Origin: Moniliella sp. 'wahieum'
Taxonomy: Eukaryota
Direction of reading: 5' to 3'
NCBI GenBank assembly: GCA_003971905.1
Contig: RSEE01000142.1
Span: forward strand, 1 to 64,000
Length of the DNA stretch: 64,000 nt
Position numbers and translations under genes: made by a program
Shown: positions 43,923-64,000 of the stretch, piece after piece
How the letters are laid out: each line of letters starts with the position of its first letter
How positions within the stretch are numbered: the stretch's first letter is position 1
Notes under the pieces: model-generated
Database searches by the model: none
The model's input: the letters and a program-made list of their open reading frames with translations, nothing else
Told to the model about the DNA's origin: nothing

Positions 43923-45482
43923 CTAGGCAAGCAGGGCTAGGCTAGGTGTGACCTGGGGGCGGGGCAAAGTGAGCGTGGTGCGCCAGAGGCGGGGGTGGGA
44001 AGGCGCGGGTGCCGTGCTGGGTGGGTGGTTGGCCGGGTGGACATGGGCGTGGGCGTGGGCGTGAGCGTGAGCGTGGGCACCTGCCTTCCCACTGGCCGAC
44101 TCGAGCGAGACCTGGCCCGAGCCAAACTGCAACAACTGGTCCGCGTAGCGTTGGAACTCGTCGAGCGGGATGGAGAGATGGAAATCGTTGAGCAAGAGGA
44201 ACTGCAGTTCGAGCTGGTTCAGCTCGGTGACGCCCAAGCCGCCGACCTTGGCGTAGCGCGAGTTGGTGTAAAACACGTCGGAGAAAAATTTGCTGGCCAC
44301 CGTGATGCCGGCAATGACCAGCCGATGCACATTGTACGAGTCGATGGCAAATCCCTTCATACCCGGGTACACCAACTCTTCCTTCTCCTCCGCCGCCGCA
44401 GAGGCGGTAGGGGCAGGGGCAGGGGCAGACTGAGCCAGATTGTCCAGCGGAGGCAAGCGGGTATGGGTCAGGCTGTCGGCGGTGACTGCTGGCGCACGCG
44501 GTGCGTCACCCGAGGAGGGGAGGAGGGAAAGGTGGCGCCGCCCATGCGGCTCATCCGATCAAAGTAGACCAAAAGGGAGATGAAGACCTCGTTGGTGGTA
44601 GGGCAGTACTTGAGAATGCGTAAGAGGTAGTCGGCAATAGAGATGCTGGGTACAGTTCGTGCATGGAAACAGAGTGTGCTGCCCACCGTAGTCAGTGCGC
44701 CCTGGGCAGCCGAAGTCATCTGGGGGGTGCCACTGATTCGGTCCAAGCTGGACTCGAGCGCCTCTCGCCGCTGGCTCGCGGTGGGCGTGCCAGTCGTGCC
44801 AGCGGAGGAGGCAGGACCGGCTGGCTGGCCGTGGCTGTGGCCGTGGCTGTGGCTGCCGTAGTCGGAGTCTCCTCGGTCGCAGATGCAGGATTGGGTATCA
44901 TCGCAGCCGCTTGCCGCGAGTGGGAGGGGGGCTGGGAGGAGGAGTGGGAGCGAGAATGGGAGGGGCTGTTGGACGGAGGGCGCAGGCGGTCGTTGGCACT
45001 GGCGATCTGCTGCAAAGCGCAGCCAGTATCCGCAGCAAGTCGCGGCTAGGGAAGGTGGCCAGGTTGAGATGTTGCCTGGGCTGGGCGGCGCCGTCTGAGC
45101 CGGGCTGGGCTGGGACTGCAGACGATCGGATGACGATGCGGGGGGCGAGGGGGGGAGGGGCGCGCGCGAGGCTGCGGAGGCGGGCCGGCAGACGCAGCAT
45201 GCGCAGGGGCATGGCCAGCGACGGACGGCGGTTGCGTCTGCGGGGGCGGGGGCGGGGCGGGGGGGGTTGTATGGGGGGCCGGGGCGGACATGGCGGGGGA
45301 GCAGGGAGGATGGCGGGGGCAGGGGCGGGGGCAGGGGCGAGGACGAGGGCGAGGGCGAGGGCGCCGGGTGTGGTGCTGGAGAGGCGATGTGGTTGGGCAG
45401 GTGCTGGCCCGGGCACTGCGACTGGCAGCGGCGGCGTGCTCCCAGCAAGAACGTGCGGAGGCGAGCGGATGATCAAAGCCAT
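43923..45482 (-). CDS. Pho80/Pcl6-7-like cyclin
   Basis: Segments FHARTVPSISIADYLLRILKYCPTTNEVFISLLVYFDRM and YNVHRLVIAGITVASKFFSDVFYTNSRYAKVGGL..ELNQLELQFLLLNDF. Confidence 0.88.
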
Positions 45483-53308: not shown

Positions 53309-56300
53309 CTAAGCGAATGCTACCCCTAGCCGCTTGGGCGCTGCCGTCGAACCCGAGAGGGTGATGCCAGCAAAGAGGGAACCAATATCGACGTAGCGCC
53401 TCGCGGAGCGCGAGAGCATACGGTCAACCGTCGTGTAGAGCACCTTGGCCAGTCGGGCGTGACGCATGCGCAGCTGCAGCACCGCACCGGGAGCCTTGTG
53501 GCCTCGGCGGAGTTGGCCACGGTGGGGAGGTCAAACAGATACTGGTAATACGAAAGTTGGGTGTACAAGTCCTTGTCCGTGTACTCCTCTACCGTCGTTC
53601 CAGGGCATCCGCGAGAACGGCAGCGCATCGCATACACCCCAGGCAACCGGCAACGCAGCCCACATGCCGAGTCGGTACAGACCCGCCAGCCAGCGTAGTA
53701 GCGATTGATGTGCTGCTGCATCCGACGGTTCAGCTGAACCGCCAACAACGGCAGGCCGAGCGTCCGCTGGCAGCCAGAGCAGCGGACGCCCACGCTGTTG
53801 GCCGGGGCGACCGGGGGCCAGAACAAGCTGTTCCTTGGCGAATGCAGGCAGCAGGCCGTCAAACGCCGTGTCGGCGCGGCAGGACGGGCAGTGGAAAGTA
53901 AGCTTGTCGCAGTGGCCATACCGCTGCTCGGGCGTGAGCTGACTATCGAGCGGAGCAAACGCGCCCCCCTGCGCTGCCGACACGTCATTCTCACTCGCTT
54001 GGGTGTAACGGCGAACATCGAGGCCGAGGCACTCGGCCAAGCGGGCGCGATCGGTACCCTCGATGCTCTCGCACAGACGCTCAATGGGGGGCAGCACTTG
54101 CAACGAGAGGTAGTACTCGAGGTCCACTTTGAGCGAGCTTCCATCACGACGAAGGTCGTCCGGGTGGTAAGCGCGCGATGCTTGCGCCGACTTGGTCGAT
54201 GCTTCCTCTCCCTCGGAACAGTAAAGATGTACGGAATCACATCCCCAGACCGAGCAGACAGACCCTTCTCCTTCATCCGCAACGCCACTTGTACATGTGG
54301 CTGGGACTTAACGTCAGGGTAGTCTTCTGGGTTTTTACCCAGGCGCTTGTAGATTATGAATGAATCAAGTGTTTGTGGCCCTCACGGACCTCAGTCGCCA
54401 GTGTACGGAGGTACTCGTGGACCTCACCTACCACGGTCTCTGTAGCCTCTCCCGAGAGGATGTAAGACAGGACACAACTGAGCATACGTGGTCAGTAAGG
54501 GGAAAAAATGCAGGAGGAAAAAAATACTTGGAGGCGTCTTTGGAAAGCTGGCAGTATTCACGACGTTTCATATCCAGACCTTTGATTTCTTTGGAGCGAG
54601 TTCCATCATCCTCGACCTTGAGAGCAGCATACTTCTTCTTTTGAAGAAGGAGCATACGCTCAAACACGGCATCAATGTCGATCTCCAGCAACTTGTAATG
54701 CTTGTTGACCGCTTTCTTGAACTCGCGTCCAATCTGCATCGCCTCCTCGTAGGTCACCTTGTTGGTGTTGATCATGACGGAATCAGTGTCGCCATAGATG
54801 ACCTCAAGGGAGATCCCTTCGGCCAGCTCGCGGGTTTGCCGCAAAATCTCACGGCCTTTAAAGGTGGTCAAGGCAGCCAGGGCCGGGCATAAAATCGAGA
54901 GTTCTCAAAACCCAGACACCCGTACATACTGTTGGCCGTCAGCTTGAGCGCAAGTTGTTTGACGTTCCACTGGGCCAGCTGCGCCTTGGTCGCCCGCTTG
55001 TCCTTCATGAGACCCTTGACGGCCCGACGCTTGTCCACCAAGGTAGCAATGAGCGCGGGCAGCACACCTCGTTCAACATCAGACGGAGGCACATCGGGTA
55101 CATCCTCCGCGCGATGGCCTCTTCCCCTTCGCCCGTCTGTTCGACCGGACTGGGGTCTCCCTTGACCCGCTCAACCGTGGTGAAGTCAATGTTGAACTCC
55201 TGGATGATGGAGGGATACAGCGAGTTAAAGTCCATGACCAGGACGTACTTGTCGCACAGCCCGCGCTTGGGCTCAAACACCAAGCCACCCTTGAACTTGT
55301 CGCGCTTGACCTTGGCGGCGCCACAACCGCGGGCTGGGGTACGTTGAACTTGTCCCGGACGCGCTTTGCGTGCATACGCTCCCGCCCAGTAATCTTGTCG
55401 GGCCACGTACTTCTTGTCGTAAAAGTCATGGAGCAGAATGTACTCATTCCTCTCTGCGCGCCCACCGTTCAAAGTCCGGTTCCAGCTGTTGCCGGCAATG
55501 TTGGTGAGTTGTTTTGTGAGCGCGAGCACTTGCAACTTGGCGGCAATGGCCATGACGAGCCAGGTGTCCATCTCGCAATGGCTTAGGAACAGACAGATCT
55601 TGGCCGGATCCAGGAACGCGCCCGCCGTCTCATCAGGGTCAATCTCGTCGCGCAAGATGCCAAGGTGGGTGGACGCCATCTCGGTAAGCGACCATGAGGT
55701 GGAGGCAATCATGCTCTTTCCACAGTCCGAGGAGAGATCCATCAACAACCGGCCGGCCATGATGTAGATAGCCGAGTTGGCCGTCAGATTCGGCCATGCT
55801 CGCCGGCGCATCCGACCGACGCGCGACCATTGGTCCGATTTCAGCTCCCGCATCCGATGCAGCAGCACGTCCAGAGACACACCAATCATGTCGTGGCCCA
55901 CAATCACGTCGGGATCTTGCGCTTGGATGTGGGCGAGAAGCCCATTGAGGAGCCCACGTTCATAATTGACCGCCACAACCTTGGAGCGTTGCCGACTGAC
56001 CAACTTGTCAAATCCATCGGGGAAACTCCCCCCAATGGGTCGAACAAAGCTCTTGATAGTTGAGGGTCGCTTATCAAACGGACGATCGTCGAACTTTCCA
56101 TTGAGTGGCTTATCGTCTTCCAGCGCATAGTCGGACCACGTTCGTGCCGATGCACACAGCACCTCGCGCTGATTCGCCTTAAAGTTCACCACGGTGCGCA
56201 CGCTCAGGGACATGATCCGCAGCGGCGGTGTACCGATTGGTGCGTCGGGCATGGAGGCCGTGACAACCGAGACGGATTTGGGTTCGTCCACAGACAACTC

Positions 56301-58232
56301 GGTCTGGCACCAACTGACCACCTCGTCACCTGTATGAACCGGCTTACCCCGAACCGCACGGGGGTAGGATCCTCGAGCCGGAGCCAGCAGGGGCCCATAA
56401 TTCGCCGCTTAAGAAGGAAAAGCTCAAATGCCGATGCGCCAGTACCAAACACACGAGCAATTTGGTCTCCCCCTCCGACTTGCCCAGAGCCTGAGCAATC
56501 GTCTCTTCCGTCAAATCGTAAGGCAGTTGCGTCTCATCAAATCCGTACCGCACTTTGAGGTAGCGAGATTGGCGTGGCACCTCGGGCAGTTCAAACGCAT
56601 AATCACGCAACACCCAGGTTGTGATGAACGACTTGATTCCAAATTTGGATCGAAGGGCATCAAACTCGTCAAATACTTCCTCCTGCCATGGCTGCTCGTC
56701 CTCTTCGTCAATCTCCATATCATCCACATTCTGCCCCCGACGTTTCTTGGCACGACGAGCCAGCTTGTCCTCCCGGATCTTACGGGCCGCCTCGAGATCT
56801 AGAAAGGAGGTTAGTACAATGCGACTCAACGCGGAGAGAGACACGAACCCTGGTCTTCTGGATCCCGTTTGGGCAACACATATAGACACCGCTCCATGCC
56901 CTCGACCGTGACGCAGCATCTCCCACTCCTGGGTGGTCTTGGAGCAATCTTGCCAATCAGGTGGATTTTGTCGCCTTGCTCATAGTGGTCCAGCCAGTAA
57001 AAGTAGACACCTCCGTCGGACTCGTAGTACGCCTCGCGCACCTTGGTATCACGGTCATCCAAACAATCTCCGTCATTGGATCCTTCTTGCCAGGGACGGG
57101 GGACGAAGAGCGGGCGCGCTGGGCGGGTGCGTGCGCGTGAGCCTTGAGTCCTGCATCCTCCTCCATCAAGTCTGCCTCCCAATCGTCGTCGTCCATGATG
57201 AGCGCCTCATGGATTTGGCGCCAGTCAATGTCGAGTTTTGCTGGTGCAGCCGACGCTGGTGCTGCCGTAGCTGATGCAGTGGCAGGAGCAGAAACAGGTT
57301 TGGTCACGGGCGGGCGTGACTGGGTCGTGGCGCGCTCAAATTTGCTTTGTGGCTGTACGGCACGCACGCCTTCGTCCTCGCTATCGTCCTCGTCAAAGAC
57401 GGAGACCTGAGGCTGGACTGCGGCTGCGACCGCATCCAATGCGGCGGGAGTAGCTTGGGTTTTGGCGCGTTTTACCGGCGCACGTTGAGGGGGAGGCACA
57501 GGGGCCTCGTTGAGCCAGCTCAGTTCATCATCCCCAGTAGGCGCCGGCTGCATTATCCGTACCCTGGGAGTGGAATTGCCCTTGGGTGGGCTCTCGAGCA
57601 TAGGGTCGCTACTGGGAATGTGGGTCGCGCTTGTGACGCTACTTGATGGACTGACAGGAGCGCGACGAGCGGTCCGGAAGCGCTCGAACCCACCAAACTC
57701 GAGAGGGCGCGCTCGCTTCTGACCCTGCAAGGGTCGCACGATGGCAGCGGGAGGGTCCTCCTCCTGGGCATCCAGACCGTTGAGAATGTTGTTCATAAAC
57801 TCGTCCTCGTCCTGCTTGGAATGTTGGGCAACAGGTGTCGTGCCGAAGAGGGTGCGCGCGCGGGCGGCGGGGTTGTGGGTGCGGGCTGCAGGCTTCTTCT
57901 GCCTGGGGGCCGACGAGAAGTAGTCGCCCTGCTGGGGGGGTGCGCTTGGCCTTCTTCTTGCCGGCACCAAAGTGGCGACGATACTCTTCCTCGCTATCTG
58001 CGCCGTCGCTAGCCCACTCGTCTTGCCCATGGTCGACATAGCCACTGCCATCGTCGTCCTCGATGAAAGTGTCGGCGAGCACACGGCCACGCACATAGCT
58101 GTTGTACTCGGCCTCGGAGACCTCGTCGTAGATGCGGCCATCGTCGTCCGAGTCGCTGGTGGGGAGGGCATGGCCCTTGCGCCGCGCAGCAAGAGCCTGC
58201 AGGGCGGAGGCACGGGCAGCGCGAGAAGACAT
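53309..58232 (-). CDS. POL1: DNA polymerase alpha catalytic subunit (frameshifted)
   Basis: N-terminal IYDEVSEAEY..FIEDDDGSGYVDHG; PolB motifs DFNSLYPSIIQEFNI, KLTANSMYGCLG and YGDTDS; C-terminal Cys clusters. Introns 56799-56848 and 54478-54527. Confidence 0.97.
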
Positions 58233-58311
58233 GGTGGTGGTGGTGGTGGTGGTGGTGGTGGGGAGGAGACGCGACGCACGCAGCTCAGCCCGCCGTCTTT
58301 TAGCACGCCAG

Positions 58312-58343
58312 ACGCGTCCCAGTGGGCGTCACGCGTCACGCGT
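58312..58343. promoter_or_regulatory. Three ACGCGT (MCB) sites upstream of POL1
   Basis: ACGCGT at 58312, 58331 and 58338, 80-110 bp upstream of the ATG. POL1 is a classic MCB-regulated gene in yeasts. Confidence 0.65.
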
Positions 58344-58664
58344 TCGGGTTCCGCCAGCCCGTCGGCGTCACCCCTGCCGCATCTCACCCTTCATGCCGCA
58401 TCTCACCCTTCAGAAGCAGGACGCGACGCGGCCCTCAGGGCACTGCGCCAGTCTCCTCCCACCACCAGCGGCATTCGGATCAGCCCGCGCGGCTTTGTTT
58501 CATTGCAGATGCCGCGTCGGGCGTCGGAGGCGCGCTGCATCATGCAAGTCCCACGATGGATTCTCATTCGATGTGCCTCGCCAGCTCTCCCAGCTCCAGC
58601 CGCCCCCACCCAAGGCAGTATAGAACACGCACACAGCATGCTAGAAACAGTGGTTGTGTGAGTG

Positions 58665-59804
58665 CTATAGAATCGAGTCCAGAAAGTCCTCGGCATCTTC
58701 CAACTTGATAGGGCCATCGTGTGTGGGAGCCGCGCCGGTCTTAGCCGCCGCCGCCGCCGCCGCGCGCGCGAAGAGCCAATTGTGCGCTTGTCGATCCCCC
58801 CATGCACCGTGGCTCCCGTCACTTGCCCGCCCCCCGCACGAGGAGCGGAGAGGTCGAGGGTGCGTGCTTGCGTCGTTCGCTCCCCGAGCTGCGCCCGGTG
58901 AAGCGTGCCTTCAAACCTGCGTGTTGCGTCAGCACTTCTACGACCCGTCGCGTCCAAGTCCGTACCGCCTTTCCTGGACCAGGACCGCTCAACATGCCCC
59001 ATCCTACAGGAGCAAGACGTACTGCTGCGCAAATGCTCGGCATGTTGCTTGTTCTTCTCAATCTCAGCGAGGAGGGCTAGTTCCTTGTCCATTTCCTCCT
59101 TTGTCAACGCTTTGGGTGTCGGCCGAACCTCGTTCTCGCTGCGCACTTTCTTGCCCTGGGCTTGGCGCGCGCTTGGGCGCGCCGTCAAATAGTCCAAATC
59201 GTGATCAATGTCCTCTTCGATCCGGCGCCGACGGCGTTCCTCCTCTTCAGGATCCCACTGAGTCTGGGCCTGGGCACGGTCGCGGGCAAGGAGGCCATCG
59301 GAAAGGGCGCCCTTGGAAGCGTCCAGCTGCTTGACCTTTTCCATTAGCTCCGTCAGGTCTGCTTCGGGTTCCACCTCCTCCTCTTCGGCCAATCTAGGAT
59401 CCTTGGGGGCCAAGTCGGCTTGCATCTGTGCAAAGCGCCACGCATTGGACTGCAGCGGTCGTCGTGCATACCGTTTGTTCGCTTGCGCCTCCGACTCCTC
59501 CTCTTCCTTCTGTTTCGTCTGCTCGGACTGGGAGGGGTGCTGCGCAGCCACCTGGAGCGTAGGGAACTCGCTGTCCTTCTTGGCGGCTTGATCTGCCTCC
59601 TCTGCCCTCCTCATCCTCCTCATCCTCCTCCGCCTCCGCTTCGGACCCCTCGTCCTCCCGCCCGGGAAAGCCGGAGGAGCCAGCGCGCCCGCCTCCACGT
59701 CCGCGTCCGCGTCCTCGCCCACGTCCACGTGCCTTGGGCTCCATCCCATGCGCCGCACGGTACCGCGCCGAAGCACGGGCCTTGTACTTGTCCTGCAACA
59801 CCAT
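58665..59804 (-). CDS. RG-repeat protein, candidate AVEN-like
   Basis: MVLQDKYKARAS..ARGRGRGRGRGRGGGR, an acidic tract, KRYARRPLQSNAWRF, and C-terminal LEDAEDFLDSIL*. Intron 58917-59022. Confidence 0.6.
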
Positions 59805-60460
59805 CCTCGCCACCAACCGAGTGGGCACGAACTAGGGACGCTCCCGCCTCTCTGCTCTCAGAATCTCACCAGTACCTGTTGCATCGTCACCAACAAGACC
59901 GAGCAGAGCGGAATCTCATTTAGGAGGCGGGGGAGCATGGGCGCAGCGGGCAGTTTGAACGTTCAATATTACATCCAATCCCTGTTGAAGTTCAACATTC
60001 ACGTTTCAATTTTCAACGTAACGATCGACGTTGTCATTCGCAGCTGCGGCGACACCGGTGTCGGAGTGCCAGAGTGTCTCCGCCACGGGTATATAACGCC
60101 TAAGGCCTAAGGGGTGCCCCCACCTCGTTAACACGGAATGCACGCCTACTATCTTATCTGCACAGCAGTCACCATCAACTCATAGAAGCGGCCTGGTGCG
60201 GCGCATCAACGGAACAAACGCAAGTACTAGTCATTACAATGGGACCAAGCGTCAAGCTTCAAGGCTGTGGTCCTCAATCGTCGCGAGCAAAAAAACGGGA
60301 GGGTATGAGCGGGCACCGCGGCACAGCCGTAGCATCTCGGTGGGGTCACAAAGGTGCATGGGGGGGGGGGAGAGAGGTGGGCAGGAAGAGAAGTGAAAAG
60401 AAGGACATGGTAGTTCATGCAGCAGGCGTTCATGGTGCATACCTCATCTTCAGAAGAGGA

Positions 60461-62196
60461 TTACATCACGGTGCAATTGGCTTCCCCTTCGTATGAGCGC
60501 GCTTGCGGCCCGGTACGCCGAGTCGACGGACTTGGATGGTTGTGGAGCCTGCGGGGCAGGTGGGAGGAGCGGCGCTCGATCATCGGCGAGCTAGGCGTAG
60601 GTGGGGTGGAATCGACGGGGCTGCGAGGGACCTTCGGTTCTTCCTCCAGGATGGGGACGACAGGCAGACGGCGTTCGAGCTGAAGGGGTGCGGCGGGGGC
60701 CTCCTTGACCACCGGCTGGGCACGCGCTTGAAGCCGAGGGGTAGTACGGTTGGAGGGGGGCGAAGAGGCAAGTGCGGCGCGGATCGCACCGAATCCGGCC
60801 ATCGGGGTCGGTGTACGAGCATCTTCCGTTCGGGCTCACTTCCCTCCACATCGGGGGTGGCCGTGTGACGCATGCTCCGCAAGGCACTCAGGCTTGCTTG
60901 CACGCCATGTCCGGCTGCTTGAGGTCGGCGCCGGGAAGAGGAGCTGTGCTACCAGCGGTCAAGGTTGCGCTGCGGGCACGCGTATCGGTGCCGGAGCTGG
61001 CGGGAGCTGGGAGAGTTGTAGGACGAGGAACGTGCTGCTCGCCCTTGATACCAGGGGTGGGGGGTACGGAACGGGCTTCACTCGTCCAGCTTGTGCCCAT
61101 GCTCAAGCCCGAAGTGCTTACTTGGGAGGCCGTCGAGGCGAGAGAGCCTTGATGATGCACGGTCCTCAACGAGCGCTCCTTGGGGGGCGTACGGGGCGAG
61201 CTGCGGCCCAAGCCAAGGAACGAACGCTTCTTGTCGTTCAACCTGTGCCCCGAAGCGACCCCAAACGCCTTGCCCCCCGTGGTGCGAGACTCGATCTGGT
61301 TGAGGGCGAGCTTGCGCGCCAGGCTGACGTCCTGGTAGCGTGCCAAGTATTCCTGTGCCGAGGGAAATTCCAATGCGGCGACAAGAACGGGATCGTCGAT
61401 GCCCAGGCGGTGACCCTCGGCTTGACGCCGTTCAAACTCGGCTTGCACCGGGTCAAACAGGTCCTTGTCCCCCAGACGCGGCATGCACCCGGTCCAATCT
61501 TCCGGGTCCTTGGGCGTAGGTGGCACTTCTTCGCCCGAGTAGCCTACCAAGAATTGGCTCGGGTTTGCATTGATCAGCTGCGCAATCCGGCCTTGGTACC
61601 GCGCCTTGGGCACCCGCACTGCCATTTCTTCCAGCATCTTGTCCAGGACTGCCAGCGCCACATCACGGGGGTAAGTGGAATCCGTGAGGATCACCCCGCA
61701 TAGCTCGTCCTCCTCTGGCCGGCCAGAGGAGAGAGCGAGAAAATCGGTGGATTCGAACTGGACTTGGTCGTTCGGCGCAGTCTCCTCAGCCAAGTCCTGT
61801 GGGTACAACGGAATGCATCCTATGGTTAACTCTGTTTTCTGGATCGACAAAAGCCAACGCAAGAGAAGGACGTACCTTGGCATCAGACGCCATTTGGTCT
61901 TGCATCTGCTGCCTCCGTAGCCAACTGAAAGGGCTCAAATCCCATGCCGCCAGAAGTGGGATGCGGTGCGTGCTCTTGTCCTGGGTAAAGATGATGGCTC
62001 CGTCTGGAAAATGAATGGATCGACGGTCAGGACTTCGTCTCTTCATCCGCACCATCCAAAAAAGGGGTGCGGGAGGAGGGGGGGGTAACATACATAAGTG
62101 CCTGCAGAGACGGGGTCCAAGCGGAAGCAGAGAGAAGAGTCTCTGGGGTCAGTATCTACGCTTCCAAAGCAGAAACGGGAGGAACGGAGCGTACAT
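60461..62196 (-). CDS. Ykt6-like longin-domain protein with C-terminal CAAX but no SNARE motif
   Basis: Spliced N-terminus MHLYGAIIF...AAWDLSPFSWLRRQQMQ...LCGVILTDSTYPRDVALAVLDKMLEE...FPSAQEYLARYQD. Introns 62102-62194, 62004-62093 and 61797-61875. It ends NCTVM* after two -1 shifts. Confidence 0.7.
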
Positions 62197-64000
62197 GGCA
62201 GTGGTGGTCAGAAGCGGGGGATGGGGGTGTGGCAAAGACAGGGAACAGAGATGATCTGGATGAACAATGTTGCTCAGAGTGTGGTGGCCGTAAGAAACCG
62301 ACGGGTGTGAAGCCGGAGGAGAGAGTGCTTCACGCTTAGAAAGGGCGAGGAAGGAAGGAAGGCCGAGAGGTGGGAAAGAAGGAAGAGGAGAGGAACGTGT
62401 TGCGGTTGCCCAGCGTGTGGTGCGTCAGCATCTTGTAGCAGCTACGAGTAAAACCCATACCAGGCCGGATCGGCTGCTGCCATAGGAGCGGGTGTACCGC
62501 TCTTCATCCTTGCCGGTTAGGGCCACTGCCAGCGCAAACACCAAAGTGTCCAGTGGCTAGTGGCAAAAGAAGCCTGAAAATCACTTGGGCCCCTCACTCC
62601 GCCCAAGGCGACTGGGCACTGTGCAACCTCGAACCAGATTGGACACTCGCGGGATGCGGGATCTGCCGGCCAGGCATGAGGTGCAAGAGGGCCTGGGATC
62701 TGAGACCAGAGGGCGTGGCCGGGCTCAGGAGCGGGGCCAGTGTCCACACTGTGGGCGCCCCCGCACCGCTCCGATGCGGAGGACGCGGAAGAAGCCGGCA
62801 AGCACCCGGTACGCCTTGCGACGCCCTAGGGGTCGTGTCAGCATGTCAGATCGTGTCACTGTCACTTGCCCAGCCACTGTGACACGTGACATGCGACTAG
62901 TGACATGAGTGACAAGGCACTATTAGTCATTCTGGTCACTGCCCTGCAGATGAAGCAGCGCCACCGGCGGTAGGGGCCTTGGGGCCGTTTGCCTTGGGGT
63001 CCGCGCTTAGCGGTTCCCGGTAACCGGTAACCAGCTAGGCGAGTGACTAGTGACGAGCTATTGGTTACGAGTGACAAGTTGCCAGTTGCTAGCTACTGGT
63101 TAGGCCGTAGGCCGTAGGGCGAAGCGCTCACACGCCAAGGTCTGCCAGTGTGGGCAGTGTGTTACACCCTGGCGGGTGGGAGCCGCAAGCCGCAAGCCAC
63201 CAACTGGCGCTGCTGGCTTCTCGCATGTCGTGGCGCACGCTGGCAACAGACGCATGTTCCGGCTCCCGCCGGGGTGTGCCCTGGCACACCCTGGTGCCAA
63301 AGGGTCTGAAGGGTCCCGGACCCAAAGCTAGCATGGCGCCGCGTGGGACGCAGCACTGACGCCGGCGCAGACCGCGGAGTGGAGAGGCTGCAAGCTGCAA
63401 CAGGGAGAAAATCGATGATCGATGATGTCGATGATGCACGATGCATGGTGGTTGTAAGAGGAAATTCAGTTGAAGCGCTGCGCAAAAGTAGCATCGGCGT
63501 CCAGTCGCCTCCAATGGCCCACCAGGGCCCAGTTCCGACCACCCCCTGGCGTTGGCAGTGGGCAGCTGGGGAACAGCACTTCTGAAAAGTGTGCATTGTT
63601 GTCGGCTCAGCCTGAGCGCTCAGCGTGCGGCCAGCAGCAGAAACGGCTCCTCTTTTTCCCCATGGCCCACACTACGTCTCGCGGCTATCCCTGGCTTTCC
63701 AGCCTCTCGTCGTACTTCAAGCTCTTCAATACGCTTGAACTTCAAGCTTCCTTTGCTCATATCTTAGCGCTTCGTAGATCTTCTCTCTCCTGAAGCCTTT
63801 TCCGGCAGATCCGCCATCTTCACACGCCATCGCCATCGTCCTGCCAGCAGCACGGAACATAATGGCAACACTAAAGCGCTGGTCCAGATTCTCAGGTCTC
63901 AGGCCTCAACGGTTGATCGAGGCCTCAGGCCTCATCGGCAGCAAGCGCCAAACACCCTACCATGTGTATACATGTCACACCCACGATCCCACGATCTGTG

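Follow-up and report, generated by a model that had tools for sequence, protein, structure and literature searches.

Ykt6 is a lipid-anchored R-SNARE with a longin domain and, at its C-terminus, a CaaX box. The Cys of this box is farnesylated and the preceding Cys takes up a second lipid for stable membrane insertion (PMC12001115, PMC8000380), and the tandem of cysteines has been described as 'strictly conserved' (PMC12001115). When Ykt6 is closed and cytosolic, hydrophobic residues hold its longin domain folded against the SNARE helices, and the exchange F42E opens the protein (PMC8000380, PMC12001115). Phytolongins, which are described from land plants only, derive from VAMP7, are anchored by a transmembrane segment and carry a short PhyL region; a plant non-SNARE Sec22 gene is mentioned as well (PMC2779197). 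Loss of the coil with the longin domain and the membrane anchor kept is known for such transmembrane longins, on the way from VAMP7 to the phytolongins and in Sec22 relatives. Among the latter, mammalian Sec22a and Sec22c are non-SNARE proteins. A different type of anchor is that of K-Ras4B, which combines a single CaaX Cys and a last Met with a preceding run of Arg/Lys and with nearby Ser/Thr as a possible electrostatic switch. A final Met in the CaaX box indicates the farnesyltransferase type. We analyze here a stretch of 64,000 nucleotides (nt) from Moniliella sp. 'wahieum' (assembly GCA_003971905.1, contig RSEE01000142.1, positions 1 to 64,000; the window) and describe a minus-strand gene encoding a longin protein that resembles Ykt6 in its head and in its C-terminal end. 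The best overall explanation, to which we assign a probability of roughly 60%, is a Ykt6-derived longin in which the coil was replaced and a farnesyl-type CaaX box was kept, and which acts as a non-fusogenic adaptor or competitor.

A longin gene of Ykt6 type and its relatives

The gene is spliced, and its longin head, the N-terminal ~200 residues of the protein, is made up of the following parts.

~62196-60461, minus strand: longin gene, spliced, ~490 codons
62195..62196, minus strand: AT, candidate bases 1-2 of a split start codon, followed by GTACGC; uncertain
62102..62194, minus strand: candidate intron 1, 93 nt, GTACGC...TACTGAC...pyrimidine tract...CAG; uncertain
62094..62101, minus strand: coding bases G CAC TTA T (..H L Y), which form an 8-nt micro-exon or close a longer first exon
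62004..62093, minus strand: intron 2, 90 nt, GTATGT...CTGAC...CAG, with homology on both flanks
61876..62003, minus strand: exon (P0003) for helix alpha1 and the strands that open the longin domain, 128 nt, DGAIIF...SDAK
61797..61875, minus strand: intron 3, 79 nt, GTACGT...ACAG, phase 0 between SDAK and DLAEET
61329..61796, minus strand: rest of the longin domain, with three strands, alpha2, insert and alpha3 ending in YQD
61389..61559, minus strand: lineage-specific insert that separates alpha2 from alpha3 and contains the conserved block GCMPRLGD..FDPVQAEF

The first-pass annotation of this DNA had proposed a longin N-terminus of the Ykt6 type, and this assignment is borne out by profile, sequence and fold comparison. 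A profile of the family aligns with a profile of nine canonical relatives over 122 columns (hhalign, 98.8%, E 4.3e-17), and the best PDB matches are all Ykt6: five of five in a phmmer search with the protein, all of them Ykt6 longin structures (E 0.004-0.01), and five of five in a profile search. The two exons contribute to one alignment. The upstream one (62003-61876) matches the N-terminus of P0010, a canonical Ykt6 from a fungus, with 45% identity over 42 amino acids (aa; E 1e-11), the flanks of intron 3 align to neighbouring Ykt6 residues, and the long exon continues the same alignment with 34% identity over 70 aa to another Ykt6 (P0015, E 2e-13). This long exon opens at the ACAG acceptor (61796) and runs in its frame, here frame A, to a TGA at 60890-60888, giving a product of 302 aa (P0001). 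An AlphaFold model of its residues 1-200, based on an alignment of 19 rows, is of moderate quality (predicted local distance difference test, pLDDT, 63) and contains three strands, alpha2, a disordered insert with one helix, alpha3 and one more helix. Foldseek comparison of this model with the PDB gave longin domains at ranks 1-13 among the matches listed, with Ykt6 at ranks 1-5; the E-values are only ~0.01 because the model is without the first ~48 residues. The protein also sits among longin clusters in a language-model atlas (score 0.90-0.91). A PDB search with the N-terminal exon alone gave no match.

Further upstream, the frame across 62004-62093 is continuous only when intron 2 is spliced out. 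The residues HLY, upstream of its donor (62093), and GAIIF then match MKIF+GLLIF in a Ceraceosorus Ykt6 (P0036) and MKLY+SLSVF in rat Ykt6. The pattern M.LY...F had been read at this point before, and it stands in part: the HLY codons match Ykt6, but the canonical Met position is occupied by AGG (62103-62101). Splicing of candidate intron 1 might provide a start: with AT (62196-62195) placed before the G at 62101, the sequence reads M-H-L-Y, which is in register with canonical MKIF/MKLY, and an 8-nt micro-exon is left. This candidate intron has a good donor, but two further AGs precede its proposed acceptor, downstream of the branch-like site. Within alpha1, rat Ykt6 (..MTF..) and the canonical relatives (..MAF..) have a Phe, the clamp residue that fixes the longin domain of Ykt6 to its coil; the window copy has Ser at this position, followed by Asp.

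The gene is not alone. A full HMMER scan of 1.84 billion representatives (E<=0.001) returned 17 matches, namely four relatives with the full architecture, twelve canonical Ykt6-like proteins and one protein (P0009) that matches only the low-complexity tail, in 15 stretches. The full-architecture relatives are P0004 (580 aa, E 1e-83, 61-63% identical to the window copy), P0005 (779 aa), P0006 (629 aa) and P0007 (564 aa; cluster mate P0025, 575 aa). Together these four ortholog clusters hold nine sequences, all from public sequencing-run assemblies and bearing neither a name nor a precomputed Pfam domain, and each cluster carries all parts of the protein in one open frame (564-779 aa). Searches with P0004, either whole or with residues 1-215, recovered the same four clusters only; a word-indexed homolog search with the last-exon protein (166-529 aa) gave no match, and a scan of metagenome contigs gave no relative.

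The canonical Ykt6 proteins nearest to the family are reached at E 9e-11 to 2e-4 (library of 1.8 billion); yeast, rat and human Ykt6 in the PDB, at E ~0.004 (library of 178,000), are far more distant than these. Those of the nearest canonical relatives that carry a name come from Tilletia horrida and two Ceraceosorus species (Exobasidiomycetes). A tree of the longin block separates 4 paralogs from 13 canonical rows by a long branch with 100/100 support; it is unrooted, has no outgroup, gives no timing and leaves out P0025, which is too short for the block. One canonical relative, P0011, has a 20-codon read-through insertion between FMSK and TVAERT, exactly at the position of the phase-0 intron 3 of the window, and this coincidence suggests that the longin family arose by a DNA-level duplication that retained intron 3. 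Judged by these alignments, the family descends from the R-SNARE Ykt6, as it occurs in fungi with canonical Ykt6 of the Tilletia/Ceraceosorus kind.

An insert before the last longin helix had been noted in the first-pass annotation. It is real, but its size is ~55 aa (P0001 residues ~84-136) and not 60-70 aa; it has no counterpart in canonical Ykt6, where hhalign leaves a gap, and is modelled as disordered with one helix. Its block GCMPRLGD..FDPVQAEF.RR.AEG.RLG is present in the window copy, P0004 and P0005 and absent from P0006 and P0025/P0007. Because only some members have the block, the family falls into two subgroups.

The replaced coil and the CaaX end

Downstream of YQD the gene continues with the following features.

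61200..61328, minus strand: conserved post-longin segment with a helix (SLARKLALNQIESRT) and the invariant KKRS
60476..61199, minus strand: low-complexity, probably disordered linker with the motifs R..TL..P, RxRSAT, VQASL..R, RTPxP....A..ALA and ..ERR
60963..60980, minus strand: RARSAT, a motif that we take to be of the basophilic-kinase type (RxRxxT), kept in 5/5 family sequences
60490..60525, minus strand: polybasic stretch RLGVPGRKRAHT (frame B), directly upstream of the CaaX box
60464..60475, minus strand: CaaX box C-T-V-M, with a single Cys at -4 and Met last
60461..60463, minus strand: stop codon TAA

Homology to Ykt6 does not stop at the end of the longin domain. The hhalign match extends 16 residues beyond YQD (YQDVSLARKLALNQIESR paired with canonical YQDPRQADTIMKVQQELD) and then ends. 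These residues belong to a conserved segment whose helix occupies residues 157-172 of the long-exon model and whose KKRS is found in all five family sequences. Beyond it, no SNARE motif could be detected. Pfam Synaptobrevin (PF00957, E<=1) matched none of the five family proteins, while two of three canonical controls were positive and the third is a cut-off ORF (open reading frame) call. The same model matched none of the 11 minus-strand ORFs of at least 37 aa in 60450-61934. When two canonical Ykt6 proteins were compared with the whole window by tblastn (E<=10), they matched the longin exons only; neither a SNARE part nor a second YKT6 came up within the window. Thus, the earlier statement that the SNARE motif is absent holds in a scan of all minus-strand frames. 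On the basis of these comparisons, only the first ~16 residues after YQD remain of the Ykt6 coil; low-complexity sequence of 290-600 residues stands in for the rest, the zero-layer region included.

We also observed that five of nine ORF-called canonical relatives (P0008, P0010, P0011, P0017 and P0020) diverge right after ..ETKIVL into Val-Ser/Val-Arg, which resembles intron read-through within the SNARE motif, ~20 residues past YQDP. Loss of the coil may relate to an exon boundary, because the homology of the paralog to Ykt6 stops about six residues before this intron-like point.

What takes the place of the coil is a long tail. The window copy has 289 residues after YQD (which ends at 61329), made up of Pro (12%), Ser (11%), Ala (10%), Arg (10%) and Thr (9%), in agreement with the long Ser/Pro/Arg-rich region described at first. 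Across the five family sequences the tails span 289-602 residues, 79-84% of them small, polar or charged. Despite this composition, a common order of motifs runs through all five: the helix after YQD, KKRS, R..TL..P, RxRSAT, VQxSL..R, RTPxP....A..ALA, ..E[RK]R, a basic block and the CaaX box. For this comparison the window sequence was assembled from frames joined by homology, with X at each break. AlphaFold gives the tail of the ortholog P0004 a pLDDT of 30-46 and predicts only three helices of ~11 residues there, at conserved motifs. A transmembrane segment was not seen; the highest Kyte-Doolittle mean over 19 residues is 0.76-1.16 in the five sequences.

The last codons of the window gene are TGC ACC GTG ATG TAA (60475-60461), so the single-Cys CTVM terminus named in the first-pass annotation can be read directly, and it is kept in the family. 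The window copy ends in ANCTVM and the four ortholog clusters end in ENCIVM, QNCVIM, DGCVVM and DQCSVM, which amounts to C-x-[V/I]-M in 5/5, with Cys at -4 in 5/5 and Cys at -5 in 0/5. Canonical relatives end in ..QNSCC..I., with tandem Cys, the paralogs in ..QNC.IM or ..ENC.VM. The preceding basic block R..[RK][KR][RQ][AV].T occurs in all five sequences, in four of them in the form RxRxxT. Since four ortholog clusters carry the same architecture in one open frame, the CaaX box is conserved and the gene is real.

Frame breaks and neighbouring genes

The window copy itself reaches its CaaX box only across four changes of frame.

60900..60913, minus strand: frame break 1 (A to B), with RARSAT in frame A and VQASLSALRSM in B
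60818..60835, minus strand: frame break 2 (B to C), with VQASLSALRSM in frame B and ARTPTPMAGFGAIRAALAS in C
60526..60579, minus strand: frame break 3 (C back to B), placed by ortholog comparison
60485..60496, minus strand: frame break 4 (B back to C), where the ortholog order ..RKRA.T.EGE.NC.VM needs a change of frame

Two shifts had been proposed, and both exist (60913-60900 and 60835-60818); the count, however, has to be raised to four. RARSAT, VQASLSALRSM and ARTPTPMAGFGAIRAALAS all stand in one frame in each ortholog. Residues 560-574 of P0004 (RLGVPGRKRAATEGE) match frame B of the window at 60525-60481 with 12 of 15 identical, so frame C must be left in 60579-60526, and EGEANCTVM is reached only if it is regained at about 60496-60485. 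Accordingly, the basic motif RLGVPGRKRA, which is conserved and lies between breaks 3 and 4, is read in another frame. Introns were considered as the cause of breaks 2 and 4 and ruled out, as the conserved motifs in the two frames are at most ~18 nt apart; at break 2, no more than 18 nt separate the frame C stop from the next conserved motif.

A neighbouring gene helps to interpret these breaks. Downstream of the longin gene, 53326-58390 on the minus strand encodes DNA polymerase alpha, catalytic subunit (Pfam matches: DNA_pol_B, exonuclease and zinc-finger), in a gene that is spread across at least four reading frames. One of its breaks, at about 54880, lies at a CCC run inside SRFYA[R/K]PLAAL, where two ORFs align to yeast Pol1 up to residue 618 and from residue 617, respectively. 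Like this one, a second break (55143-55110) is too tight for an intron, and a third is probable at 56372-56318. Two polymerase stretches of ~1.4 kb are without a frame break. Taking the longin and polymerase genes together, six of eight frame changes are in the direction of one missing base. Because an essential gene is broken in the same way, the breaks in the longin gene are most likely single-base assembly errors, a view that we hold with high confidence, and the gene would be intact in the organism. Reads contributed little here: one sequencing run (share 0.06) yielded a single contig of 234 nt, 61009-61242, that covers no frame break. The frequency of single-base omissions in this assembly means that other genes of the window have to be read accordingly.

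Several further ORFs were observed around the two genes. Between them, 58403-59857 on the minus strand is an open frame of 484 codons with runs of Arg, Glu and Lys and without a Pfam match, which may be a gene of its own or, in a further frame, an N-terminal region of the polymerase. An open frame at 44468-45472 (minus strand) matches Pfam Cyclin (PF08613, E 6e-14). Antisense to the longin gene, 60732-61703 on the plus strand is an ORF of 323 codons without a Pfam match, most likely a chance frame in GC-rich DNA, and the ORFs upstream of the longin gene (62439-63793), likewise without a Pfam match, are taken as GC-rich chance frames.

Proposed working and comparison with known systems

We propose a working of the longin protein that starts from its two ends. 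The terminal Cys would be farnesylated, as judged from Met as the last residue, and the second lipid of Ykt6 would be impossible because there is no second Cys. With a single lipid the protein would rely on the farnesyl plus the adjacent polybasic stretch for membrane binding, by analogy to the two-signal anchor of K-Ras4B. Anchor and linker are probably controlled by basophilic kinases of the AGC/PKA type, at KKRS, RxRSAT and R[KR]R..T. Entry into a fusion complex would be impossible because the SNARE coil is missing, and a longin head on a long flexible membrane tether may instead work as an adaptor, or compete for the partners that bind longins. The exchange of the clamp Phe for Ser in the window copy would fit a loss of the Ykt6-style closed state. 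As far as can be deduced from its domains, the longin family probably regulates membrane traffic rather than driving it. A wider picture, which we regard as tentative and rather doubtful in its entirety, would make these proteins the first lipid-anchored, Ykt6-derived non-SNARE longins, in which a phospho-regulated tether with a farnesyl-polybasic switch acts at a membrane such as the plasma membrane or the Golgi and titrates or recruits Ykt6 partners without fusion; they would then be an independent fungal counterpart of the phytolongins.

Some observations weigh against the interpretation as a Ykt6-derived, lipid-anchored longin. Pfam Longin (PF13774) scores the partial window protein at E 3e-4 and 20.9 bits, below its curated cut-off of 26.2, and three orthologs, whose N-terminal exons are absent, at 21.5, 16.7 and 11.4 bits against the same cut-off. 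For the orthologs, the proteins come from ORF calls whose first residue lies within the last exon, and they are thus uninformative on the N-terminal exons, so that the N-terminal third of the longin domain and the Phe-to-Ser exchange are known only from the error-prone window. A start codon is not plainly visible in the gene. The four frame breaks cluster in the last 450 nt with none in the preceding ~890 nt, unlike uniform random error. The full model of P0004 is poor (pLDDT 39, 7 sequences), and the low confidence of its tail is therefore weak evidence for disorder. Finally, the basophilic-kinase and 14-3-3-type readings of the family motifs follow consensus patterns that we presume to apply here.

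The crowding of four breaks into 450 nt, with a nonzero net effect, together with the lack of an unambiguous ATG and a sole read contig (61009-61242) that misses the breaks, could indicate that the window copy is a decaying pseudogene with real mutations, whose product ends at 60888 without a lipid anchor. However, like breaks occur 1-6 kb away in an essential gene, that of DNA polymerase alpha, one of them at a homopolymer in an invariant motif, and breaks aside no conserved motif is lost from the window copy, whose identity to P0004 is 61-63%, which makes decay improbable. Rather unlikely, too, is a protein that works like Ykt6 itself, mostly cytosolic and auto-inhibited with its farnesyl hidden in the longin domain, and cycling onto membranes on a signal. 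Such a state has a precedent in mono-farnesylated Ykt6, for which a tightly closed form is described whose lipid lies in a hydrophobic groove (PMC12001115), and the family has conserved a helix after YQD that can be aligned with the beginning of the Ykt6 coil. Yet the SNARE helices that complete this groove in Ykt6 are missing in the family, the window copy has Ser in place of the clamp Phe, and the basic stretch conserved next to the CaaX box is what commonly provides the second membrane signal.

Two further alternatives concern the tail. The C-terminal Cys motif might not be a prenylation site at all, and the protein soluble with its end conserved for another purpose; acidic residues precede the Cys (EGEANC, EGEENC, NDQNC), which may be less favourable for some CaaX enzymes. 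We consider this very unlikely, given that Cys at -4, aliphatic-type residues at -3/-2 and Met at the end are kept in 5/5 amid otherwise poorly conserved tails and that its forerunner in Ykt6 is a proven CaaX box. Least credible is a still working, very divergent SNARE with its coil hidden in the conserved helical tail motifs. In the model of P0004 the VQxSL..R and A..ALA motifs of the tail do form short helices, three in number, but they measure ~11 residues each and are parted by long Pro/Ser-rich stretches, so no heptad run of ~53 residues is formed; neither a Synaptobrevin signal at E<=1 nor a tblastn match to the coil was obtained. We thus return to a coil-less longin with a farnesyl-type anchor as the best explanation.

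The first-pass annotation knew of no description of such a protein in fungi. In full-text literature (supplementary tables lay outside its scope), including passages of a fungal SNARE survey (PMC2639358), we met no Ykt6-derived or prenylated non-SNARE longin. Surveys that are based on the coil would overlook such proteins. The family has no database name, and its annotation is useful in itself. It also presents a natural separation of function, with the Ykt6 longin and the farnesyl signal but without coil or second Cys, which could help to test each of these alone.

Compared with Ykt6, the family shares the type of longin, the YQD at the end of the domain, the lack of a transmembrane segment, a C-terminal CaaX box that ends in Met or an aliphatic residue, and apparently at least one intron position in common with canonical genes of related fungi. 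In contrast to Ykt6, it is without a SNARE coil, has one Cys where Ykt6 has tandem CC, and contains a linker of 290-600 aa and a basic stretch before the CaaX box; the window copy moreover has the ~55-aa insert and a replaced clamp Phe. As the coil and the tandem Cys that define Ykt6 are both missing, the protein is not a Ykt6. With K-Ras4B anchors the family has in common the single CaaX Cys, the final Met and the preceding basic run with nearby Ser/Thr, but the cargo is a longin and not a GTPase, and acidic residues stand between the basic run and the Cys. Non-SNARE Sec22 relatives are likewise longin proteins without a functional SNARE motif; however, they are of the Sec22 type, anchored by a transmembrane segment and without a CaaX box. 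The phytolongins come close in that their SNARE motif was replaced by unrelated sequence with the membrane anchor kept and that the coil-binding side of alpha1 has diverged (PMC2779197). Unlike these, the family described here is fungal, has a longin of the Ykt6 type and a long disordered linker, and is, by CaaX prediction, anchored by lipid and not by a transmembrane helix. Thus, the step known from transmembrane longins appears to have been taken here independently, from the lipid-anchored Ykt6 and in a narrow group of fungi.

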